This document shows positions 1-26,391 of a DNA stretch of 57,891 nucleotides, one piece after another (positions within the stretch are counted from its first letter, which is position 1; each line of letters opens with the position of its first letter). A program made the translations under genes and the position numbers. Source of the DNA: an uncultured Eubacteriales bacterium (GTDB lineage: Bacteria > Bacillota > Clostridia > Oscillospirales > UBA644). Location of the stretch: positions 1-57,891 of the forward strand of contig CAKSQP010000001.1 in NCBI GenBank assembly GCA_934486965.1. Reading direction: 5' to 3'. The notes under the pieces were generated by a model. The model saw only the letters and a list, made by a program, of their open reading frames with translations, searched no databases and was not told the DNA's origin.

Positions 1-485
1 CAGGCTTTGCCGAATGCCCGCCAGTCAAAGCGCGGGCGGGTCAGACGCAGCGGCGTATCGTTTTCCCGCAGAAAGTCGCTTATAACGGAGGTCGCCACCG
101 CCAGAGCCTTATCCTTGGGATATCCGTAAATTCCCGACGAAATAAGCGGAAAGGCAACGGTTTCGCAGTTGTATTCCTTTGCAATCTGCAAAGATTTTTT
201 ATAGCAGGATTCAAGCAGCGCTTTTTCGTTTTTTCCGCCGCCGTACCAGACGGGACCTACGGTATGAATGACATATTTGCACGGCAGGTTATATGCGCCT
301 GTGATTTTCGCGTCCCCCGTCTCACACCCGCCGAGGGTCTTACATTCTTCAAGAAGCCCTTCCCCCGCAGCGCGGTGAATACAGCCGTCGACGCCTCCGC
401 CGCCGAGCAAAGACGGATTTGCGGCATTGACAATGGCGTCTGCCGTCATTTTCGTTATGTCGTTCCTTACAATTTTTAATGGCAT
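1..485 (-). CDS. Macro-domain protein (YmdB-like ADP-ribose / O-acetyl-ADP-ribose hydrolase); C-terminal end cut by the window edge
   Basis: My own translation of the minus strand from ATG 485..483 gives [41 protein letters not shown]...VIHTVGPVW...[14 protein letters not shown]. It contains the NAAN, GGGVDG and SGIYGYP macro-domain motifs. It is absent from the ORF track because the frame runs off position 1. Confidence 0.85.
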
Positions 486-5203: not shown

Positions 5204-5427
5204 AAAACGCCCTCCGAGCCAAGCCTTTCTATTGACTTTTTTACAAATATATGCTTTAATAATAATGTATGTAATGAATTGTCCGCGGATATTTCGACAA
5301 AATTCTCCGCTATATTTATTATACAATATAAATTCATTTTATTTCAACCGTCATTTTACCCAAAAGAGGGCGTTTTGCGACTTTGAAATTTATGCAAAAC
5401 CCACAATGACAAAGAAAGGAAGCCTTT

Positions 5428-6273
5428 ATGTCGTTTATCGAAGCAATAGTAATGGGAATCATTCAGGGAATCGCGGAATTTCTGCCGATATCCTCGTCGG
5501 GACATCTCGTCATCACCGAAAAACTCTTCAACTGGGGAGAAACACAGAGCGCCGACGTATTTTTCGATATGCTCCTGCACCTCGGAACTCTTATAGCGGT
5601 ATTTATAGTATTCCGCAAAACGATATGGGAACTCATAGTCTGTCTTTTCAAGACGATAGGTCAGATTTTCACGGGGAAATTTCATTTCAAAGATACGACC
5701 CCTATGCAGAAAATGATAGGCTTTCTTATCATTTCGATCCTGCCGCTTTTCGTAATATTCCCCTTTAAGGACGCGATAACCGACTTTTTCTATAATTCGC
5801 TCCTTGCCGTCGGCATTGCCCTTATAATAAACAGCGTCGTACTCTTTTTCTGCGACCGTTTCAAAGAAGGCAAAAAGACCGCGGGAAATATGAGAAAAAG
5901 AGACGCGCTCGTTATCGGTATCGCTCAGGCGATTGCCGTTATTCCGGGAATTTCGCGTTCCGGCTCGACGATAACCGCGGGGGTCGGAATGGGCGTACGC
6001 CGCAGCGAAGCCGCGGGATATTCCTTTATTCTTTCGATACCCACCATTCTCGCGGCGGTCCTTCTCGACATTCTCGACACCGTAAAGGCGGGAGAATTAA
6101 ACACCGCGCTTTTGCCGCAGTATCTCGTCGGATTTGTCGTCGCAGCAGTCGTAGGATTTTTGTCGATAAAACTTCTTCAGTATATTCTTAAATCGAAGAA
6201 ATTCGTTATATTCTCGGTATACTGCCTTATCGTCGGCGCAATAGTAACGGCTCTCGCAGTCGTAGGAATGTAA
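5428..6273 (+). CDS. uppP: Undecaprenyl-diphosphate phosphatase
   Basis: The 281-aa polytopic membrane ORF carries the N-terminal motif GIAEFLPISSSGHL and the later segment PGISRSGSTI. Confidence 0.92.
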   Translation: MSFIEAIVMGIIQGIAEFLPISSSGHLVITEKLFNWGETQSADVFFDMLLHLGTLIAVFIVFRKTIWELIVCLFKTIGQIFTGKFHFKDTTPMQKMIGFLIISILPLFVIFPFKDAITDFFYNSLLAVGIALIINSVVLFFCDRFKEGKKTAGNMRKRDALVIGIAQAIAVIPGISRSGSTITAGVGMGVRRSEAAGYSFILSIPTILAAVLLDILDTVKAGELNTALLPQYLVGFVVAAVVGFLSIKLLQYILKSKKFVIFSVYCLIVGAIVTALAVVGM

Positions 6274-18732: not shown

Positions 18733-19407
18733 ATGCGTTTGCTTATCGCAGAAGACGAAAAGGACCTTGCGGAGGCGCTTACCGTCTTTTTTGAAAAAAA
18801 CAATTTCTCGGCGGACGCCGTTTACGACGGGCAGGACGCCTACGACTACGCAATTTCGGGCGGCTATGACGCGATAATCCTCGACATTATGATGCCGAAG
18901 ATGAACGGACTTGAAGTCCTCGGGAAATTACGCCGCGAGGGGATAAAAACTCCCGTCATGATGCTGACGGCAAAGGGTCAGACTTATGACAGGATAGCGG
19001 GATTTGACGCGGGCGCGGACGACTATCTTCCGAAACCGTTCGAACCCGACGAACTCATAAGCCGCGTTCGGGCAATGCTCCGCCGGAGCGAAGATTACCG
19101 CCCGACAGTCCTTAATTTTGCGGATATCTCCCTTGATTCGGGGTCGGGTCTTCTTTCCTGCGGGAATAAGACCGTCCGTCTTTCGGGCAGGGAATTTCAA
19201 CTTGCCGAAATGTTTATCCGCTCCCCCGGTTTCGTTTTTTCCGCCGACAGGATAATGGAAAAGATATGGGGCTGGGAAAGCGACGCCGAGATAAACGTCG
19301 TTTGGGTCCACATCTCGAACCTGCGCAAAAAATTAAAACAGATAGGCTCAAAAGTCTCAATTCAGGCAAACAGAGGCCTCGGATATTATATGGAGGCTGA
19401 AAAATGA
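18733..19407 (+). CDS. OmpR-family response regulator
   Basis: MRLLIAEDEKDLAEAL..., receiver motifs ILDIMMPKMNG and DDYLPKPF, and a winged-helix C-terminus (ANRGLGYYM). Confidence 0.9.
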   Translation: MRLLIAEDEKDLAEALTVFFEKNNFSADAVYDGQDAYDYAISGGYDAIILDIMMPKMNGLEVLGKLRREGIKTPVMMLTAKGQTYDRIAGFDAGADDYLPKPFEPDELISRVRAMLRRSEDYRPTVLNFADISLDSGSGLLSCGNKTVRLSGREFQLAEMFIRSPGFVFSADRIMEKIWGWESDAEINVVWVHISNLRKKLKQIGSKVSIQANRGLGYYMEAEK

Positions 19408-20672
19408 TAAAAAAACTGCGCCTGCGCTTTATAAATATAGCGACTCTTTCGGTCGCGGCGGTAATGCTCCTGCTTGCCGTCGCGGTCAATGCCGCGTCCT
19501 TTTATTCCGCGAATTCCGACCTTGACAAAACGATAAACCTTATTTACGAAAACGACGGAACTGTTCCCGAAAACAAGGTCGTACCGCCGAAAGACGACAT
19601 CGGAACTCCGCCGCCCGACAAAAAAGATCCGCACGAAGAGAGAGGAAACGGTCCTTTCACCGCCGAAACGCCCTATTCGACGAGATTTTTCGTTCTGAAA
19701 TGCGACGAAAACGGAAACCTTGTTTCGTCAAATTTCGACAAGATAGCGTCGGTCACCGAAAACGACACCTCCGAATTTCTCGCGGCGGCATTGAAAAAAG
19801 GACACGGATACGGTTTTTACGGCAACTATAAATTTTTCGTTTCCGACCCCGAAAACGGCGAAAAAACGATAATCTTCCTTGACTGTTACCGCGAACTGCG
19901 CTCCGCAAAAACTTTGATTATATGGTCGGCGGTCGCGGTCGTGGGCTGTACGTTGCTCGTTTTCCTGCTTGTCGTTTTCTTCTCGAAAAAAGCGGTCGAA
20001 CCCGTCGCGGAAAGTTACGAAAAGCAAAAACGTTTCATCACCGACGCAAGCCATGAATTAAAGACGCCGATAACGGTCATCGCGACAAGTCTGCGCGTTC
20101 TCGAAATGGAAACGGGCAAACAGAAATGGATAGACAAAGCCAAAAGCCAGACCGAGAAACTTACCGAACTTGTAAATTCGCTCGTTTCGCTTTCGCGTCT
20201 CGACGAAGAAAAGTCGCCCCTTAAATTTTCGGGATTCAACATAAGCGACGCGGTAAACGAGACCGCCGAATCATTTTCCGATTTCGCCGCGTCAAACGGC
20301 AAAACGCTTGAAATTTCGGTCGAACCCGACATAACTTATAACGGAAACGAATACGCCGTCCGCCAACTCGTTTCAATACTTATCGACAACGCGGTAAAAT
20401 ATGCCGACCCGTCGTCGCCTATCCTTGTTTCTCTTAAAAAATCAAAGAAAAAGATAATAATAAAAACGGAAAACGCCTGCGCCGAACCGATAAAAGGCGA
20501 TCTTTCAAAACTTTTCGACAGGTTTTACCGCGCGGACGAAAGCCGAAATTCGGAAACGGGCGGTTTCGGGATAGGTCTTTCGCTCGCAAAAAGCATTGCG
20601 GAGGGACACGGCGGCAAAATTTCGGCGTCTTCCCCCGAAGCAAACAAAATAGAATTTACCGTCACTCTTTAA
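19404..20672 (+). CDS. Sensor histidine kinase (2 TM, extracytoplasmic loop, HisKA-HATPase)
   Basis: The 422-aa ORF has the H-box SHELKTPIT, the G-box GGFGIGLSLAKSIAEGHGG, and an ATGA overlap with the response regulator stop. Confidence 0.9.
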   Translation: MIKKLRLRFINIATLSVAAVMLLLAVAVNAASFYSANSDLDKTINLIYENDGTVPENKVVPPKDDIGTPPPDKKDPHEERGNGPFTAETPYSTRFFVLKCDENGNLVSSNFDKIASVTENDTSEFLAAALKKGHGYGFYGNYKFFVSDPENGEKTIIFLDCYRELRSAKTLIIWSAVAVVGCTLLVFLLVVFFSKKAVEPVAESYEKQKRFITDASHELKTPITVIATSLRVLEMETGKQKWIDKAKSQTEKLTELVNSLVSLSRLDEEKSPLKFSGFNISDAVNETAESFSDFAASNGKTLEISVEPDITYNGNEYAVRQLVSILIDNAVKYADPSSPILVSLKKSKKKIIIKTENACAEPIKGDLSKLFDRFYRADESRNSETGGFGIGLSLAKSIAEGHGGKISASSPEANKIEFTVTL

Positions 20673-20691
20673 GACTGCCTCAGGAGGCTAT

Positions 20692-21270
20692 ATGATTTTT
20701 AAGATATCCGCACTCATTCTTCTCGCCGCTTTTTATGCCTGCTACTTTATAAAGATGTTCGGGCAAAGAAAAAAAGGGATAAAAACCTCGCAGATAGGCA
20801 AAGGCAAAACTGGAAAAACCCGAACGGTAGAATATCTGATGTCCGTTTCGACGGTCCTTGCCGTCATAGCCGAAGTTGCAAGCATTATTGTCGGAACGAC
20901 CGTTTTTCCGCTCTTTTTGCGGATAATCGGGCTTGCTATCACGGCGGCGGGAGTTGCCGTCTTTATCGCGGCGGTCGTAACGATGAGGGACAGTTGGAGA
21001 GTCGGTGTTCCCGAAGAAAAGAAAACGGCTATTGTCACAACGGGAATTTTTTCCGTAAGCCGCAACCCCGCGTTTCTCGGTTTCGACCTCGTTTATCTCG
21101 GAATCCTTCTGATGTTTTTCAATCCGTTTCTCCTGCTCTTTTCTGTGTTTTCGGCGGTAATGCTTCATTTGCAGACCGTTGTTGTCGAAGAACCGTTTCT
21201 TCGCGAGGCGTTCGGAAAAGAGTATGAAAATTATACAAAAAATGTCTGCCGCTACCTCGGAAAAAAATAA
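20692..21270 (+). CDS. Isoprenylcysteine carboxyl methyltransferase (ICMT/PEMT)-family membrane methyltransferase
   Basis: The 192-aa polytopic ORF has an AGGAGG RBS. The segment TTGIFSVSRNPAFLGFDLVYLG...EEPFLREAFGKEYENY is typical of the ICMT family. Confidence 0.75.
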   Translation: MIFKISALILLAAFYACYFIKMFGQRKKGIKTSQIGKGKTGKTRTVEYLMSVSTVLAVIAEVASIIVGTTVFPLFLRIIGLAITAAGVAVFIAAVVTMRDSWRVGVPEEKKTAIVTTGIFSVSRNPAFLGFDLVYLGILLMFFNPFLLLFSVFSAVMLHLQTVVVEEPFLREAFGKEYENYTKNVCRYLGKK

Positions 21271-21298
21271 AAATACAAAAAAAGTTTTTATTTATGTA

Positions 21299-21327
21299 TT
21301 GACAAAGCGAAAAAAGAGGTATATAAT
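21299..21327 (+). promoter_or_regulatory. Consensus sigma-A promoter for the leader and ABC-importer operon
   Basis: TTGACA (21299-21304), exactly 17 nt, TATAAT (21322-21327). Confidence 0.7.
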
Positions 21328-21358
21328 TGTGTCATATTAAAACGAAAGGAAAACGAAG

Positions 21359-21442
21359 ATGAACCGCAATTTTTACTTTGCATACTTTTATTATTACTTT
21401 TATTTTAAGAAAAGTAATATAATTTGTGATGCACGTAAATAG
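21359..21442 (+). CDS. Putative Tyr/Phe-rich leader peptide (27 aa)
   Basis: My own translation gives MNRNFYFAYFYYYFYFKKSNIICDARK*. The RBS-like GAAAGGA ends 8 nt before the ATG. Codons 21371-21406 are 5 Phe, 6 Tyr and 1 Ala. The ORF is below the ORF-track length cutoff. Confidence 0.5.
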   Translation: MNRNFYFAYFYYYFYFKKSNIICDARK

Positions 21443-21476
21443 GTTTATCGGGTCTCTCCGTTTTATAAAGGCTATT

Positions 21477-21509
21477 ACACACGGTATCACAACCGTGTGT
21501 TTTTTATTT
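21477..21509 (+). terminator. Intrinsic terminator (attenuator) inside the 5' leader of the ABC-importer operon
   Basis: A 9-bp stem pairs ACACACGGT (21477-21485) with ACCGTGTGT (21492-21500), followed by TTTTTATTT. It lies 25 nt upstream of the substrate-binding-protein ATG. Confidence 0.75.
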
Positions 21510-21533
21510 GGCAAAAGAAAGGAAAGAAAAACA

Positions 21534-22496
21534 ATGAAAATCAAGAAAATCGTATCCATCGTTCTCGCCGCGGCGCTTCTTGTCGCCTGCGTGCTCTCCC
21601 TCTCCGCCTGCGGAGAAAAAAAGGTATATACCGTAGGTATCTGCCAGCTTGTCCGTCACGAAGCGCTTGACGCCGCGACCCAAGGCTTCAAGGACGCCCT
21701 CGTAAAGGCGCTCGGCGAAGAAAACGTAACATTTATCGAACAGAACGCCCAGAACGACACCAACGCCTGCTCGACGATAGTGACAGACTTCGTTTCCAAA
21801 AACGTCGACCTCATTCTTGCAAACGCCACCCCCGCTCTTCAGGCGGCGTTCAACGCGACCCAGACTATCCCCGTTCTCGGAACTTCCATAACCGAATACG
21901 GCGTTGCTCTCGGGATAAACGACTTTAACGGAACTGTCGGAGGCAACGTTTCGGGAACTTCCGACCTTGCTCCCCTTACCGAACAGGCGGACATGATCCT
22001 CGAACTCTTCCCCGAAGCCAAAAACGTCGGACTTATCTACTGTTCCGCAGAAGCAAACTCCGCATATCAGATAAAAGTTATCGAAGAATACCTCACCGCT
22101 AAAGGTCTTACCTGCACCCGCTACTCCTTCAGCGACTCGAACGACATTTCCGCCGTTACGACTACCGCGGCGTCCCAGAGCGATGTAATTTATATCCCGA
22201 CCGACAACACCGCCGCGTCCTGCACCGAAACGATAGGCAACATCGTAAGAGAAAAGAAAGTTCCCGTCGTCGCGGGCGAACAGGGAATTGCCGCAGGTTG
22301 CGGAGTCGCTACCCTTTCCATTTCATACTATGACCTCGGCGTAAAAACCGGCGAAATGGCGGCAAAAATACTCAAGGGAGAGGCAAACATCTCCGAAATG
22401 CCCATCGAATACGCAACCGCAACAAAAATGTATAACCCCGAGATCTGCAACGAACTCGGAATCACCATTCCCGACGGATACACCGCTATTCAGTAA
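21534..22496 (+). CDS. ABC transporter substrate-binding lipoprotein (COG2984 / ABC_sub_bind family)
   Basis: I place the start at MKIKKIVSIVLAAALLVACVLSLSACGEKK, which has a lipobox LSAC. The segment YTVGICQLVRHEALDAATQGF is typical of the family. The ORF-track upstream extension covers the leader and terminator. Confidence 0.85.
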   Translation: MKIKKIVSIVLAAALLVACVLSLSACGEKKVYTVGICQLVRHEALDAATQGFKDALVKALGEENVTFIEQNAQNDTNACSTIVTDFVSKNVDLILANATPALQAAFNATQTIPVLGTSITEYGVALGINDFNGTVGGNVSGTSDLAPLTEQADMILELFPEAKNVGLIYCSAEANSAYQIKVIEEYLTAKGLTCTRYSFSDSNDISAVTTTAASQSDVIYIPTDNTAASCTETIGNIVREKKVPVVAGEQGIAAGCGVATLSISYYDLGVKTGEMAAKILKGEANISEMPIEYATATKMYNPEICNELGITIPDGYTAIQ

Positions 22497-22525
22497 TTTC
22501 CTGAGGGCAGGGAAAGGAAAATAAT

Positions 22526-23428
22526 ATGGGACTTATCTCCGCTTTGCCGGGAGCCGTCGCCCAGGGACTTATCTGGGGCATTATGGCGATCGGCGTATAC
22601 ATCACTTACAAAATACTCGACATCGCCGATCTTACGGTTGACGGCTCTATCTGCACGGGAGCCATAGTCTGCGCAATGCTCATGGTAAACGGCACGCCCG
22701 TCTGGCTCGCGCTCATCGCCGCAACGGTCGCGGGAATTATTGCGGGCGCGATAACGGGGCTTTTGCATATACTTTTGGGAATTCCCGCTATTCTTTCGGG
22801 AATACTCACGCAACTTGTCCTGTGGTCGGTAAACCTCAAAATCATGGGAAAGGCAAACCAGCCGCTTTCCGCAAGAAACTATAAAGTTCTCATTTCGCAG
22901 ATGAACATTCCCTCGGCGCTTATCGTTCTTGCCGTTTTCGCGGTTCTTCTCGTCGCGGTTCTCTACCTCTTCTTCGGAACGGAACTCGGCGCAGGTATCC
23001 GCGCTACGGGCATAAACCCCGCAATGAGCCGCGCGCAGGGCATAAACACCGACATAACGAAACTCATAGGCCTTGCCCTTTCAAACGGAATAGTCGCCCT
23101 GTCGGGCGCTCTTCTCTGCCAGTATCAGGGATACGCCGACATAAATATGGGTAAGGGCGCCGTCGTTATCGGGCTTGCCGCCGTCGTTATCGGCGAAGCG
23201 ATAATCTCGAAACTGCCGCCGAATTTTGCGATCCGTCTTACGGGCGTTATTATCGGCGCGGTCATCTATTATATCGTATATCAGGTAATAATTTTCCTCG
23301 GTCTTGACACCGACCTTCTCAAAATGCTCTCGGCGGTCGTCGTTGCGATTTTCCTCGGTACGCCCTACGTCAAAGGAAAGATAGCCGCCCGCCGCGGAAT
23401 CAAAAAGGAGGGGAAAACAAATGCTTGA
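22526..23428 (+). CDS. ABC transporter permease (COG4120-type)
   Basis: The 300-aa ORF is highly hydrophobic and polytopic, and sits between the substrate-binding and ATPase genes. Confidence 0.85.
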   Translation: MGLISALPGAVAQGLIWGIMAIGVYITYKILDIADLTVDGSICTGAIVCAMLMVNGTPVWLALIAATVAGIIAGAITGLLHILLGIPAILSGILTQLVLWSVNLKIMGKANQPLSARNYKVLISQMNIPSALIVLAVFAVLLVAVLYLFFGTELGAGIRATGINPAMSRAQGINTDITKLIGLALSNGIVALSGALLCQYQGYADINMGKGAVVIGLAAVVIGEAIISKLPPNFAIRLTGVIIGAVIYYIVYQVIIFLGLDTDLLKMLSAVVVAIFLGTPYVKGKIAARRGIKKEGKTNA

Positions 23429-24218
23429 GTTGCAGAATATCACAAAAGTTTTTTACCCCGGTACAATAAACGAAAAGATAGCCCTCAACGATTTGAGCCT
23501 AACCCTGAACGACGGCGATTTCGTTACCGTCATCGGCGGAAACGGCGCGGGTAAAAGCACGATGCAGAATATCATTTCGGGCGTTTTCCGTCCCGAAAAA
23601 GGCAAAGTTTTAATCGACGAGACCGACGTCACGGCGCTCCCCGAATATAAACGCGCAAAATATCTCGGCAGAGTTTTTCAGGACCCCGCGATGGGCACTG
23701 CGGCGGATATGCAGATAGAAGAGAACCTCGCTCTCGCCTGCCGCAGAGGAAAACGCCGCACGCTCCGCTCCGGAATAACGAAAAGAGAGCGGGAGGAATA
23801 CAAAAGACTTCTTTCCGAACTCGACCTCGGACTTGAAAACCGAATGACCGCGAAAGTCGGTCTTCTTTCCGGCGGACAGAGACAGGCGCTGACCCTTCTC
23901 ATGGCGTCTCTCAACTGCCCGAAACTTCTGCTCCTCGACGAACACACCGCCGCCCTCGATCCGAAAACAGCGGCAAAAGTTCTCGACATAACGCAGAGAA
24001 TAGTCGAAAATAATCACCTCACGACCCTTATGATAACCCACAACATGAAAGACGCTATTGCCTACGGCAACCGCCTTATCATGCTTCACGAAGGACAGAT
24101 CATAATTGACGTTTCGGGTGAAGAAAAGAAAAACCTCACCGTCGAAGACCTCTTAACGCTGTTCAATAAGGCGAGCGGAACCGTCTTCGCAAACGACAGA
24201 GCAATTCTTTCGGACTGA
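23421..24218 (+). CDS. ABC transporter ATP-binding protein (COG1101-type)
   Basis: Walker A GGNGAGKST, signature LSGGQRQAL, Walker B LLLLDEHTAALD. The start overlaps the permease gene by 8 nt. Confidence 0.9.
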   Translation: MLELQNITKVFYPGTINEKIALNDLSLTLNDGDFVTVIGGNGAGKSTMQNIISGVFRPEKGKVLIDETDVTALPEYKRAKYLGRVFQDPAMGTAADMQIEENLALACRRGKRRTLRSGITKREREEYKRLLSELDLGLENRMTAKVGLLSGGQRQALTLLMASLNCPKLLLLDEHTAALDPKTAAKVLDITQRIVENNHLTTLMITHNMKDAIAYGNRLIMLHEGQIIIDVSGEEKKNLTVEDLLTLFNKASGTVFANDRAILSD

Positions 24219-24231
24219 TAATTTCAAAAGT

Positions 24232-24262
24232 AAAGCACTCGCTTTTCAGCGAGTGCTTTTTT
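24232..24262. terminator. Bidirectional intrinsic terminator between convergent operons
   Basis: GCACTCGC (24235-24242) pairs with GCGAGTGC (24249-24256). It is flanked by AAA on the 5' side and TTTTTT on the 3' side. Confidence 0.8.
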
Positions 24263-24709
24263 CTATTTAAGGGACGAATTCATTTTCTTTATTTTCCGTT
24301 TCCAGCAGAAATACTGTATAAGCCAGACCGCAACGAAAATCAAGACAAAAATTCCCGCATAAGAAAGCACGCCGACGACGGAATGTTCGATCCATTCGGA
24401 AATGTAAGCGATCGGCAGCATTACAAGCGACGCGATAAGAAAATATATTCCGCTCTGCTTTGCAAGGCTCCATGAATCAATTTCCCAGATAACGGACGCC
24501 ATGGCAAAGCCGCTCCCCATAATTCCGCAAAAAACGGTCTGCAACGAAACAGCCCCGAGTTCGCTCCCGACCGTTTCGATAAATTCGGGAGTTGCGGGAT
24601 AAAACGAGCCGTCGCCGATAAACGCCGAGATAATCAGCGTGATAACGAAACCTATCGCGATTCCGACGGGGAACCCGAACAGCCCGCGTTTTATAACTTC
24701 TTTTTTCAT
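24263..24709 (-). CDS. DUF3021-family membrane protein
   Basis: I place the start at MKKEVIKRGLFGFPVGIAIGFVITLII, preceded by a GAGGTGG RBS. The protein has four TM helices and sits in the usual position downstream of a LytTR regulator. Confidence 0.7.
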   Translation of the reverse strand: MKKEVIKRGLFGFPVGIAIGFVITLIISAFIGDGSFYPATPEFIETVGSELGAVSLQTVFCGIMGSGFAMASVIWEIDSWSLAKQSGIYFLIASLVMLPIAYISEWIEHSVVGVLSYAGIFVLIFVAVWLIQYFCWKRKIKKMNSSLK

Positions 24710-24719
24710 ATTTACCACC

Positions 24720-25160
24720 TCATAACCCCAAAAGTTTCTTGATTTTTGAAACATATCGCCGCGAAACGTAAGTGACCGTTCCGTTTGTCAAGGAAACGCG
24801 GATAGTCCCGACAAAACTCAGGTCAAAGCCCTTTACCTTTTTTATATTTATGATTTCGCCGTTCGAAATTCTCGCAAAAGAGCGGTTCAAAAGGTGTTGT
24901 TCCGCCTCATAAAGCCGCAGGCGGAGAAGATATTCCCCGTTTTCGGTTTCGGCATATACTTTTCCGCCCGAAGAATAAACGCGGTATATCGTTTCGGGGT
25001 CAAGGACCGTCGCCTGCCCGTCAGAAAACCCCGCGAGAACCGTCGCCCGAAAGCCCGAAACAGTTTTCACTATTTCGTTTATTTCGTCGGTCACTTTGTC
25101 CGTTACAACCACGATTTTCGGCTCGGTGCAGTCGCCGTCGATTTTGATTTCAACTTTCAT
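24720..25160 (-). CDS. LytTR-family DNA-binding protein (stand-alone)
   Basis: The 146-aa ORF ends with the LytTR segment ...FARISNGEIINIKKVKGFDLSFVGTIRVSLTNGTVTYVSRRYVSKIKKLL. Confidence 0.8.
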   Translation of the reverse strand: MKVEIKIDGDCTEPKIVVVTDKVTDEINEIVKTVSGFRATVLAGFSDGQATVLDPETIYRVYSSGGKVYAETENGEYLLRLRLYEAEQHLLNRSFARISNGEIINIKKVKGFDLSFVGTIRVSLTNGTVTYVSRRYVSKIKKLLGL

Positions 25161-25303
25161 GACAATCTCCTTTCAACGGCTTTATTATAAGGGACCGACG
25201 GCGGAATTTCAACAGTTTTTTGATAAACGGTCGTTTTTTGAATACGGACGGTTTTTAACGGGACAGAATTTCCCGCCCGCCAACGGTTTTTTTCGTTACC
25301 CTC

Positions 25304-25332
25304 TTGACAAAAAGAAAAAACGGCAGTATAAT
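25304..25332 (+). promoter_or_regulatory. Consensus sigma-A promoter for the XRE/DUF3169 pair
   Basis: TTGACA (25304-25309), 17 nt, TATAAT (25327-25332). Confidence 0.7.
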
Positions 25333-25336
25333 ACAT

Positions 25337-25376
25337 TTTGACAAGGATAGTTGTCAAACAGACAAATAAAATTGTC
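25337..25376 (+). promoter_or_regulatory. Two palindromic operators (GACAA-N6-TTGTC) just downstream of the -10 element
   Basis: TTTGACAAggatagTTGTCAAA lies at 25337-25358 and GACAAataaaaTTGTC at 25361-25376. Their centres are about 21 bp (two helical turns) apart, which suggests XRE autoregulation sites. Confidence 0.5.
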
Positions 25377-25391
25377 GAACGGAGGTTTTGT

Positions 25392-25613
25392 ATGGTACTG
25401 CGGAATCGTTTGAAAGAACGCAGAGCCGCGCTGAATGTCAATCAGCAGGAAATGGGACGCCTTTGCGGCGTATCACGGCAGACAATAAGCCTTATCGAAA
25501 GAGGCGATTATTCGCCGTCGGTGACCCTTGCCCTGACGATTGCAAAGGTATGCGGGGTTACGGTGGAAGAAGTGTTTTATTTACAGGAGGAAACCGAAAA
25601 TGGAAAACAATGA
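25392..25613 (+). CDS. Small XRE-family HTH transcriptional regulator
   Basis: MVLRNRLKERRAALNVNQQEMGRLCGVSRQTISLIERGDYSPSVTLALTIAKVCGV. A GGAGG RBS lies upstream. Confidence 0.85.
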   Translation: MVLRNRLKERRAALNVNQQEMGRLCGVSRQTISLIERGDYSPSVTLALTIAKVCGVTVEEVFYLQEETENGKQ

Positions 25614-26391
25614 AATCAAAAAAGCAAACCGCAAGGCTCTGCCGAAGTTTCTGCTTTTTTCCGTGCTGTGTATGGTCATCGGCGGAGTAACGGGCTATCT
25701 TGCGGCGAGATACGGACTTGACCGAATGGCGGGAACAATAGAGGCAGCGGGAGACTTCTTCGGAACTCAGATAGCCCCGTGGCTGATGGTCGCGACGGCT
25801 CTTGCCGTGCCCTCGGTATGCACCCCGATTTATCGGAAAGCAAAAAAACTGCTCGCTGCGTGGGACGGCGAAGACGAAGACGTCTCGGCGGAAACCGACC
25901 GAAAACTTTCTGCCGTAATCTGGATTACGGGTGTCACTCTTGTTCTTTCCTTTTTTCTGCTTGCCGCTTCTTATTCGGGAGGTTTTTCAACCTTTGACAA
26001 CAGCGAAAGAACCGTAATTCTTTTTATCGGAATTGCCGCATTTTTTATTATTTTTGCGGAAGTTATTATTTTCCAGCAGAAGTGCGTCGACGCCGCAAAG
26101 AAAACGAACCCCGAAAAGAAAGCGTCCGTTTACGATATGAAATTTCAGAAAAAGTGGATCGACGACTGCGACGAAGCCGAGAAAATCATGATAGGCAAAT
26201 GTGCGTTCAAAGCATATTCCGCAACAAATGCGGTCTGCGCGGCTTTATCCATAGTTCTTACCCTCTGCGCGCTCGTTTTCGGTATCGGATTTTTGCCCTC
26301 GCTTGCGGTATGCCTTATCTGGGTCATAAATATGTCGGTATATTTCAGGGAATCCCTGCGATATACAAGATCGGGAAACAAAATTTCCTGA
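25600..26391 (+). CDS. Polytopic membrane protein (DUF3169-like partner of small XRE regulators)
   Basis: The start MENNEIKKANRKALPKFLLFSVLCMVIGG follows a GGAGG RBS and overlaps the XRE gene by 14 nt. The protein has about six TM helices. The family assignment is from memory of the XRE+DUF3169 gene pair. Confidence 0.6.
   Translation: MENNEIKKANRKALPKFLLFSVLCMVIGGVTGYLAARYGLDRMAGTIEAAGDFFGTQIAPWLMVATALAVPSVCTPIYRKAKKLLAAWDGEDEDVSAETDRKLSAVIWITGVTLVLSFFLLAASYSGGFSTFDNSERTVILFIGIAAFFIIFAEVIIFQQKCVDAAKKTNPEKKASVYDMKFQKKWIDDCDEAEKIMIGKCAFKAYSATNAVCAALSIVLTLCALVFGIGFLPSLAVCLIWVINMSVYFRESLRYTRSGNKIS

Follow-up and report, generated by a model that had tools for sequence, protein, structure and literature searches.

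Among the closest described systems are the classical attenuators of Proteobacteria, such as pheL-pheA of Escherichia coli and the trpL and hisL leaders. In these systems, a promoter is followed by a short translated frame with a run of codons for the amino acid under regulation, an intrinsic terminator precedes the structural genes, and four regions of the leader RNA pair according to a 1:2/2:3/3:4 logic. Here we describe a leader with the same layout and the same pairing logic in a stretch of DNA from an uncultured Eubacteriales bacterium (GenBank assembly GCA_934486965.1, contig CAKSQP010000001.1, positions 1 to 57,891; this entire 57.9-kb stretch is referred to as the window). The leader lies upstream of an operon that encodes an ABC transporter and includes a short open reading frame (ORF) with a run of tyrosine and phenylalanine codons. 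We consider it very likely that this leader is a transcription attenuator of the classical, ribosome-mediated leader-peptide kind, responding to charged tRNA-Tyr and tRNA-Phe and controlling a tyrosine-type ABC importer for aromatic amino acids.

The window's leader resembles pheL in having a run that is rich in Phe codons, and in related bacteria, a leader of the window's type also precedes pheA. In other respects it differs from pheL, trpL, and hisL. It has no sequence or structure homology to them, and its host is a gut Clostridium instead of a proteobacterium. Its codon run mixes Tyr and Phe, and it is an ABC importer, not a biosynthetic operon, that forms its principal target. Also, its antiterminator strand is directed at the loop and the upper 5' arm of the terminator, and an upstream segment (box A) mimics that loop. 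We know of no leader peptide that senses tyrosine.

Within the Firmicutes, His leader peptides have been predicted upstream of hisS or hisZ in the Bacillus cereus group and upstream of the his operons of Peptostreptococcaceae and Erysipelotrichales (PMC2965389, PMC9413887). An earlier interpretation of the window, made from its letters alone (the sequence-only reading), had stated that a pheL-like leader would be unusual in Firmicutes. This was too broad, as the His leaders are a precedent. Histidine is so far the sole amino acid for which such leaders have been predicted in this phylum, and these two papers report no aromatic leader. The Firmicutes His leaders likewise sense an amino acid, replace T-boxes in some lineages, and are described from comparative genomics only; they differ from the window's leader in the amino acid, the genes, the RNA sequence, and the bacterial families.

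Two other kinds of regulator are worth comparing. The Tyr or Phe T-boxes that we found upstream of COG2984 orthologues (see below) and the Trp T-box of TrpXYZ have the same position and the same output (antitermination) as the window's leader, and they respond to the same signal (the charging of an aromatic tRNA). A T-box binds the uncharged tRNA directly, without translation, whereas the window's leader would read tRNA charging via a translating ribosome. T-box control of TrpXYZ was shown experimentally in Streptococcus suis (PMC9382623). For the antibiotic-response genes bmrCD and vmlR of Bacillus subtilis, experiments have established ribosome-dependent control of an intrinsic terminator via a leader ORF (PMC4191407, PMC9226507). 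In these two cases, the stalling is caused by antibiotics and not by a shortage of a specific aminoacyl-tRNA, and there is no run of codons for a single amino acid. Our search of the literature turned up no account of Tyr/Phe leader peptides, either in Clostridia or in other Firmicutes; a Russian-language survey (Lopatovskaya et al. 2010, Mol Biol 44:128) was outside this search.

The leader and its relatives

All of the features of the leader are on the plus strand. A sigma-70-type promoter (TTGACA at 21299-21304, a 17-nt spacer, and TATAAT at 21322-21327) matches at 12 of 12 positions in our promoter scan, and it is one of only two such matches within 19000-26000. Transcription probably starts near 21334. 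The leader ORF (21359-21442; MNRNFYFAYFYYYFYFKKSNIICDARK) has 27 codons followed by TAG; it was read from the window's ORFs and has homologs in relatives. Its ATG at 21359 lies inside the 5' leader, 32 nt past the -10 box, and is preceded by a Shine-Dalgarno sequence (GAAAGGA, 21344-21350) that is 8 nt 5' of it. Among the 12 codons at 21371-21406, which are the proposed stall sites, six encode Tyr (TAC or TAT) and five encode Phe (TTT). If all 12-codon windows in all six frames of the 57.9 kb are considered, then this value of 11 out of 12 is the sole maximum. The runner-up elsewhere has 8 of 12, and the combined share of Phe and Tyr in the window's genes is 7.3%.

An intrinsic terminator at 21477-21508 (ACACACGGU-AUCACA-ACCGUGUGU followed by U5AU3), identified by a terminator scan, contains regions 3 and 4 of the leader. 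Its 9-bp stem (21477-21485 / 21492-21500) is followed by T5AT3, and it ends 25 nt before the ATG of the substrate-binding protein (21534). The promoter, the Shine-Dalgarno sequence, the 27-codon ORF, the 11 of 12 Phe or Tyr codons, the terminator, and the ABC operon are all where the sequence-only reading had placed them.

Between the start of the codon run and the terminator, there are three more elements. Box A (region 1; UGCAUAC, 21379-21385) pairs in the minimum-free-energy fold, in which the ribosome is absent, with the 3' half of box B (21426-21433). In the hairpin P1 (21392-21419), the same fold pairs Tyr/Phe codons at 21392-21401 (UAUUACUUUU) with 21410-21419 (AAAAGUAAUA) across an 8-nt loop. 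Box B (region 2; AUUUGUGAUGCACGU, 21422-21436) was recognized from invariant columns of the alignment: it includes the invariant core of the family, TTTGTG.T, and is the putative 5' strand of the antiterminator. The leader as a whole folds into a long interrupted hairpin followed by the terminator (-46.2 kcal/mol; z = -4.8 relative to shuffled sequences).

To find relatives of the leader, we scanned one genome per species with the binding protein and examined the best 80 loci (60-96% identity). Nearly all of these are from metagenome-assembled genomes of Oscillospiraceae, Ruminococcaceae, or "Eubacteriales", and many are from the gut or the rumen. A homologous leader is present at 30 of the 80 orthologous loci. 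The order of its parts is the same in all 30: a Shine-Dalgarno sequence, an ATG, an ORF of 18-41 codons with a Phe/Tyr run, box A, P1, box B, a linker of variable length, and the terminator, which was found in 30 of 30. Examples of box A from the relatives are AUUGCAAAU and UUUGCAUAC. The 5' arm of P1 is made up of Tyr/Phe codons in the relatives as well (arms CUAUUACUU / AAGUAAUAG), their box B has the invariant sequence (GA)UUUGUGAUGC, and the apex of their terminator (gGAUCACAAgUCc) is complementary to box B. We also scanned metagenome contigs with a DNA pattern for the 3' arm of P1 and box B, which gave at least 120 more stretches. Ten of 120 matches were chance matches within coding DNA and were discarded. 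The same leader is present at at least about 90 metagenome loci. Across 40 non-redundant homologous leaders, a Shine-Dalgarno sequence is present in 35 (at a spacing of 3-13 nt) and the start codon is ATG in 38; in 20, a strong promoter of the form TTGAC[AT]-16..18-TAYRVT lies within 90 nt upstream of the leader's ATG. We did not find a second copy of the leader in the window or in any of the retrieved loci.

The leader is not confined to transporters of this type. Complete copies precede genes for DAHP synthase, prephenate dehydrogenase, and a third ORF that we read by eye as aroB (locus L090); genes for chorismate mutase-prephenate dehydratase (pheA) at two loci (L093 and L102, with an ORF read by eye as aroB following at L102); and a sodium:solute symporter (L151). 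The peptide upstream of pheA at L093 (MYVSAMFAFLFTFTGLQ) has Phe codons and almost no Tyr codons, while several of the transporter leaders are dominated by Tyr.

At seven more loci (L121, L129, L131, L136, L156, L192, and L195), the leader is intact and of the L012 type, and the gene for the binding protein and most of the permease gene are gone. Within about 90 nt past the leader, there are gene remnants and the ATPase gene. These may be strain-level deletions or assembly artefacts, and we excluded these loci, which lack the binding protein, from the count of new targets.

Three other orthologous loci (L028, L052, and L061) have leaders of unrelated sequence that nevertheless contain a Phe/Tyr-rich mini-ORF with a Shine-Dalgarno sequence, followed by a terminator. 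These form two further classes of aromatic leader, with peptides ...SFYYYFSCPHYFV and ...SYFYFYFRSPHQYA in one class and MRTYAHTYGFRFYVRYYYSGIVSAA in the other. At L052 (about -152 to -30 relative to the ATG of the binding protein) and L061, a segment at the stop codon (CGUCUGAG) is complementary to the terminator's apex (CUCAGACG). Judging by their sequences, the L052 and L061 leaders follow the same design principle with a different sequence.

Could the leader not be a switch at all? The terminator might belong to the upstream methyltransferase-like gene (20692-21270), and the ORF might be a chance frame in an A+T-rich spacer. The intergenic region is indeed just 29% G+C (versus 47% for the window), and short ORFs are common in such DNA. 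However, the stretch from that gene to the terminator contains a perfect promoter, and the leader accompanies transporter or aro genes at at least about 120 loci, whatever lies upstream. Furthermore, the conserved alternative pairings that are described below would be left unexplained. We regard this explanation as extremely improbable.

The relatives also show which parts of the ORF are conserved. In each of the 30 leaders, the frame of the ORF contains 6-11 Phe or Tyr codons, as compared to 0-5 in the two other frames, and this aromatic frame is held in all 30 despite many codon-sized insertions or deletions (indels) and changes of frame downstream. The Phe/Tyr codons also extend past the arm of P1. 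In the pooled leader peptides, Tyr accounts for 15.8% of the residues, Phe for 12.7%, and Trp for 0.2%. In contrast to the aromatic run, everything else about the peptide varies: its length (17-41 amino acids), its N-terminus, its stop codon, and the frame of its C-terminus. Lineages differ in the frame (0, 1, or 2) in which box B is read and in the distance of the stop codon from the start of box B (-5 to +50 nt, mostly +20 to +32). Box B is therefore kept as RNA, and the C-terminal part of the peptide is unconstrained. By this comparison of sequences, only the aromatic run is constrained at the level of the peptide or its codons. An alignment of orthologous leaders had been suggested as a check on the sequence-only reading, and the outcome agrees with it: the mini-ORF and its aromatic run are kept, and the other codons, the length of the ORF, and the C-terminal frame drift.

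These patterns also bear on another explanation, which is that the mini-ORF encodes a functional small hydrophobic protein, such as a membrane or signalling peptide, that is co-expressed with the transporter. That the ORF is kept, along with its Shine-Dalgarno sequence and its ATG, would be expected for such a protein. But both termini and the length vary and only the Phe/Tyr content is kept; an intrinsic terminator separates the ORF from the operon; and the same type of ORF precedes unrelated genes of aromatic pathways. We give this explanation a very small chance of being correct.

Mutually exclusive pairings

In the window, the antiterminator would form between 21424-21436 (UUGUGAUGC-A-CGU) and 21481-21492 (ACG-GUAUCACAA). 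Of all duplexes between the leader and the terminator region, this is the best one, with 12 base pairs, one bulge, and an energy of -14.8 to -15.2 kcal/mol. It consumes the entire loop of the terminator, five of the nine nucleotides of its 5' arm, and the first base of its 3' arm. In the relatives, a conserved GC.CA.AAACGG past box B lengthens the helix to CCGU at the base of the 5' arm. Across species, the antiterminator duplexes range from -11.5 to -23.8 kcal/mol, with a mean z of -2.7 as compared to shuffled leader segments. As long as the leader is free, box A and P1 keep hold of box B.

The sequence-only reading had proposed that the region around box B is complementary both to the codon run and to the 5' shoulder and loop of the terminator. 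Two of these three complementarities stand: the pairing of 21392-21401 with 21410-21419 is present in the fold, and the pairing of UUGUGAU (21424-21430) with AUCACAA (21486-21492) is conserved. The third, GUAAUA (21414-21419) with UAUUAC (21473-21478), has to be dropped, as it could not share an antiparallel helix with UUGUGAU:AUCACAA, and even the closest relatives have not kept UAUUAC.

We modelled the effect of a ribosome on these pairings in two ways. In full-length equilibrium folding of the leaders from the window's clade, the probability of the terminator is 0.98 if the RNA is free or if the ribosome is at the stop codon. With the ribosome at codons 11-14, this drops to 0.33-0.44 for the window and to as low as 0.00-0.06 for its relatives in the clade. 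Since full-length folding discriminates only in the window's clade, we also modelled the nascent transcripts of 30 species, with the RNA cut four bases past the terminator's loop. To represent the stalled state, we masked the RNA from the Shine-Dalgarno sequence to 12 nt past the Phe/Tyr codon in the A site. (If only the footprint of the ribosome is masked, then the region of the Shine-Dalgarno sequence pairs across the ribosome with the region past the stop codon, which locks the terminator. We judged this to be unrealistic for queued ribosomes, hence the masking from the Shine-Dalgarno sequence onward.) If there is no ribosome, the partner of box B lies upstream in 22 of the 30 nascent transcripts and in the terminator region in 3; with a ribosome on the Phe/Tyr codons, it lies in the terminator region in 29 of 30 species. 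When the ribosome has reached the stop codon, it covers box B.

The alignments of the relatives give a separate view of these structures. RNAalifold predicted no pairs from the raw MAFFT alignment of the full leaders (A1), which we attribute to the variable linker, as this makes the alignment too gappy. We therefore removed the linker (alignment A2, 28 sequences) and scored explicit structures. For the OFF structure (box A:box B, P1, and the terminator), 79.7% of the cells are paired, as compared to 36-48% for controls in which the structure was slid, and the covariation score is 0.312 (versus 0.07-0.16). For the ON helix, 81.0% of cells are paired (versus 31-42%) and the score is 0.225 (versus 0.07-0.14). 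For both structures, none of 500 shuffles scored as high. Among the individual helices, 94.6% of cells are paired in box B:apex (28 sequences) and 78% in box A:box B. Changes on both sides of a pair are seen at five of the nine pairs of P1 and at 9 of the 11 pairs of the terminator's stem. By eye, we noticed compensatory changes at L047 (GUGCU/AGCGC) and at L053 and L074 (GUGCUGC/GCAGACAA). As modelled, the leader has three conserved pairings that are mutually exclusive: that between boxes A and B, that between box B and the 5' arm and loop of the terminator, and the terminator itself. The sequence-only reading had called for folding the leader to look for a structure that competes with the terminator; such a structure exists, and it is conserved.

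The free leader of the window has another helix, in which the Shine-Dalgarno sequence and start of the mini-ORF (21338-21365) are paired with the segment after its stop codon (21442-21465), including UAAAACG/CGUUUUA and AUGAACC/GGUUUAU. This basal helix is incompatible with the antiterminator in nested folds. It could also limit re-initiation on completed transcripts.

A strongly structured leader might instead act by binding a metabolite, as a riboswitch, or by binding a protein, as attenuators of the TRAP or PyrR kind do, and the mini-ORF might be a by-product of a U/A-rich hairpin. Several of our observations are compatible with this: the z of -4.8 for the leader, the conservation of box B at the level of nucleotides and not of peptide, and the 5' arm of P1, which must be rich in U, A, and C if it is to pair with the AAGUAAUA arm. 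On the other hand, the Shine-Dalgarno sequence (35/40) and the ATG (38/40) are kept at the right spacing, the aromatic frame is kept in 30 of 30 leaders despite indels, and the Phe/Tyr codons exceed the arm of the hairpin. Also, the three complementary boxes explain every conserved nucleotide, which leaves no candidate for a ligand pocket, and leaders of different structure upstream of the same gene still have a Phe/Tyr run.

Comparisons to known RNA families also argue against a riboswitch. No family in Rfam, including tRNAs, riboswitches, and T-boxes, matches anywhere in the 57.9-kb window at the gathering score. Even at E ≤ 10, the region 21200-21600 has only chance matches to unrelated small RNAs (sRNAs) and small nucleolar RNAs (snoRNAs). 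Phe_leader, Trp_leader, His_leader, Leu/phe leader, and the other leader families in Rfam show no homology to the window's leader. The T-box family (RF00230) has no match in the window, and the leader lacks a Stem I, a specifier loop, and a T-box sequence. A covariance-model hit to a known riboswitch had been listed as a result that would overturn the sequence-only reading, and no covariance model gave such a hit for the leader. Overall, we find control by a metabolite or a protein improbable.

The transporter and its T-box relatives

The operon downstream of the leader, on the plus strand, encodes a substrate-binding lipoprotein of the COG2984 type (21534-22496; PF04392, 1.3e-57 in Pfam), a permease (22526-23428; BPD_transp_2), and an ATPase (23421-24218; ABC_tran); the latter two were also identified with Pfam and belong to the same operon. 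The operon ends at a terminator (24232-24259; terminator scan).

The solved structure that is nearest to the binding protein is 6HNI (CD0873 from C. difficile; E = 6e-54). CD0873 binds tyrosine, as shown by its crystal structure and by thermal-shift data, and the related structures 3LKV and 3LFT bind Phe and Trp, respectively (PMC6816091). That study attributed specificity to two residues of CD0873: Glu263, which bonds to the hydroxyl of tyrosine, and Tyr279, whose position is Gln in the Trp binder (PMC6816091). Glu249 and Tyr265 of the window's protein align with Glu263 and Tyr279 of CD0873, and this pair is kept in all 79 of the orthologues examined. The presence of Tyr, instead of Gln, at position 279 of CD0873 would exclude Trp. 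Judging from these residues, the binding protein appears to have a tyrosine-type pocket and to be part of an aromatic amino-acid importer of the type that includes CD0873 (Tyr), VC_1101 (Phe), and SP1069/TrpX (Trp).

Many orthologous transporters do not have a leader peptide, and at nine such loci, Rfam identifies a T-box upstream (59.7-113 bits). From the alignments, we read the specifier as UAC (Tyr) at six of these loci (L018, L027, L037, L056, L071, and L079). The specifier of L040 and L043 is probably UUC (Phe), by positional homology with L018. None of the T-boxes that we read at orthologous transporters has a UGG specifier. The sequence-only reading had suggested that the codons of the leader would point to Tyr or Phe as the substrate of this transporter; the Glu/Tyr pair shared with CD0873 and the Tyr or Phe T-boxes of the orthologues are independent evidence for the same substrates.

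Aromatic-rich nascent chains can interact with the ribosome's tunnel, which raises the question of whether the leader peptide is instead a TnaC-like arrest peptide that senses free Tyr or Phe in the exit tunnel and not the charging of tRNA. The ORF would be translated under that model as well, and the present evidence is silent about the direction of the response. But we see no conserved arrest motif at the C-terminus: what follows the run is translated in three different frames, and the position of the stop codon relative to box B ranges from -5 to +50 nt. Furthermore, the targets are genes for uptake or biosynthesis, which are expected to be induced by a shortage and not by an excess, and the orthologues have T-boxes, which respond to uncharged tRNA. 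In our view, an arrest peptide is highly improbable.

Several of the loci have other regulatory elements. Past its transporter operon with the Tyr T-box, L071 has two further T-box leaders in tandem (5244-5691), and the second of these appears to have an AUC (Ile) specifier. Fluoride riboswitches are found at L057 (1800-1870) and L060 (1320-1392), about 1-1.7 kb upstream of more distant orthologues of the transporter; these two orthologues have neither a leader peptide nor a T-box. In the window itself, the intergenic region at 25160-25540 has a LytTR regulator with a DUF3021 gene on one side (minus strand) and an ORF at 25540-26391 on the other (plus strand), and it contains overlapping divergent near-perfect sigma-70 promoters: 25304-25332 on the plus strand (12/12) and 25357-25328 and 25212-25184 on the minus strand (both 11/12).

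The proposed attenuator and its significance

We propose that the leader works as follows. Transcription would start near 21334, and a ribosome would load on the 27-codon ORF. If Tyr and Phe are plentiful, the ribosome would reach the TAG at 21440 and cover box B (21422-21436); the terminator (21477-21508) would then form, and transcription would end 25 nt short of the importer gene. In the absence of any translation of the leader, box B would be sequestered by box A (21379-21385) together with the 5' arm of P1, and the terminator would form again. If Tyr-tRNA or Phe-tRNA is scarce, the ribosome would stall within 21371-21406 and would hold box A and the 5' arm of P1, which would leave box B free. 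Box B could then pair with the 5' arm and loop of the terminator (21481-21492) as these emerge, the terminator would be blocked, and RNA polymerase would enter the operon.

The window's leader has the features of this class of attenuator: its own ribosome-binding site and start codon, a cluster of cognate codons, an intrinsic terminator before the first gene, exclusive pairings (as computed), and codons that are kept while the peptide drifts. The elements themselves, their conservation, their exclusive pairings, and the link of the downstream genes to Tyr and Phe are established by sequence and computation.

Several points weigh against this interpretation. We infer the translation of the ORF, the stalling, the kinetics, and the response of read-through. 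The Phe/Tyr codons themselves make up the U/A-rich 5' arm of P1, which means that the aromatic bias could be structural in part. Both-side changes are found at only two of the eight pairs of the box B:apex helix; box B is nearly invariant, and there are few compensatory changes in this helix because box B hardly varies. In full-length equilibrium folding, the relatives with long G+C-rich terminators (-20 to -27 kcal/mol) keep the terminator at any position of the ribosome; under this model, the switch in these relatives would have to be kinetic. The UUC specifier of L040 and L043 becomes GUU if the register shifts by one base. Finally, Johnson et al. reportedly found in 2020 that transcription in Bacillus subtilis is uncoupled from translation, which would count against a switch that depends on coupling if it is also true here.

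The window's leader would be a new and apparently undescribed addition to the classical leader-peptide attenuators. We lean towards the view that it represents the first recognized family of leader peptides that sense Tyr and Phe. In this view, the family is widely distributed among uncultured Oscillospiraceae of the gut and among related Clostridia, it controls an aromatic regulon (the importer, DAHP synthase-tyrA-aroB, pheA, and the symporter), and it takes the place that T-boxes have in sister lineages. This would add tyrosine to the amino acids that are known or predicted to be signals for leader peptides. It would also extend attenuation by amino-acid leader peptides in the Firmicutes beyond a few predicted cases for His, with leader peptides and T-boxes being swapped before the same gene.

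The proposed mechanism, if correct, implies a functional coupling of RNA polymerase to the leading ribosome, on this leader at least, in a phylum whose model organism is reported to be uncoupled. A Clostridial switch that depends on coupling would provide a testable handle on transcription-translation coupling outside of the Proteobacteria. The motif AGTRNNRGYGATTTGTGATGC, together with a Phe/Tyr mini-ORF, could be converted to a covariance model and used to annotate aromatic amino-acid regulons in metagenomes. For the transporter itself, three independent lines of evidence agree (the codons of the leader, the specifiers of the orthologues' T-boxes, and the residues of the pocket), and on this basis we assign it a role. 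This would give a function to a common but poorly characterized family of ABC transporters in the abundant and mostly uncultured Clostridia of the human gut: the uptake of tyrosine, and probably of phenylalanine, induced by starvation.

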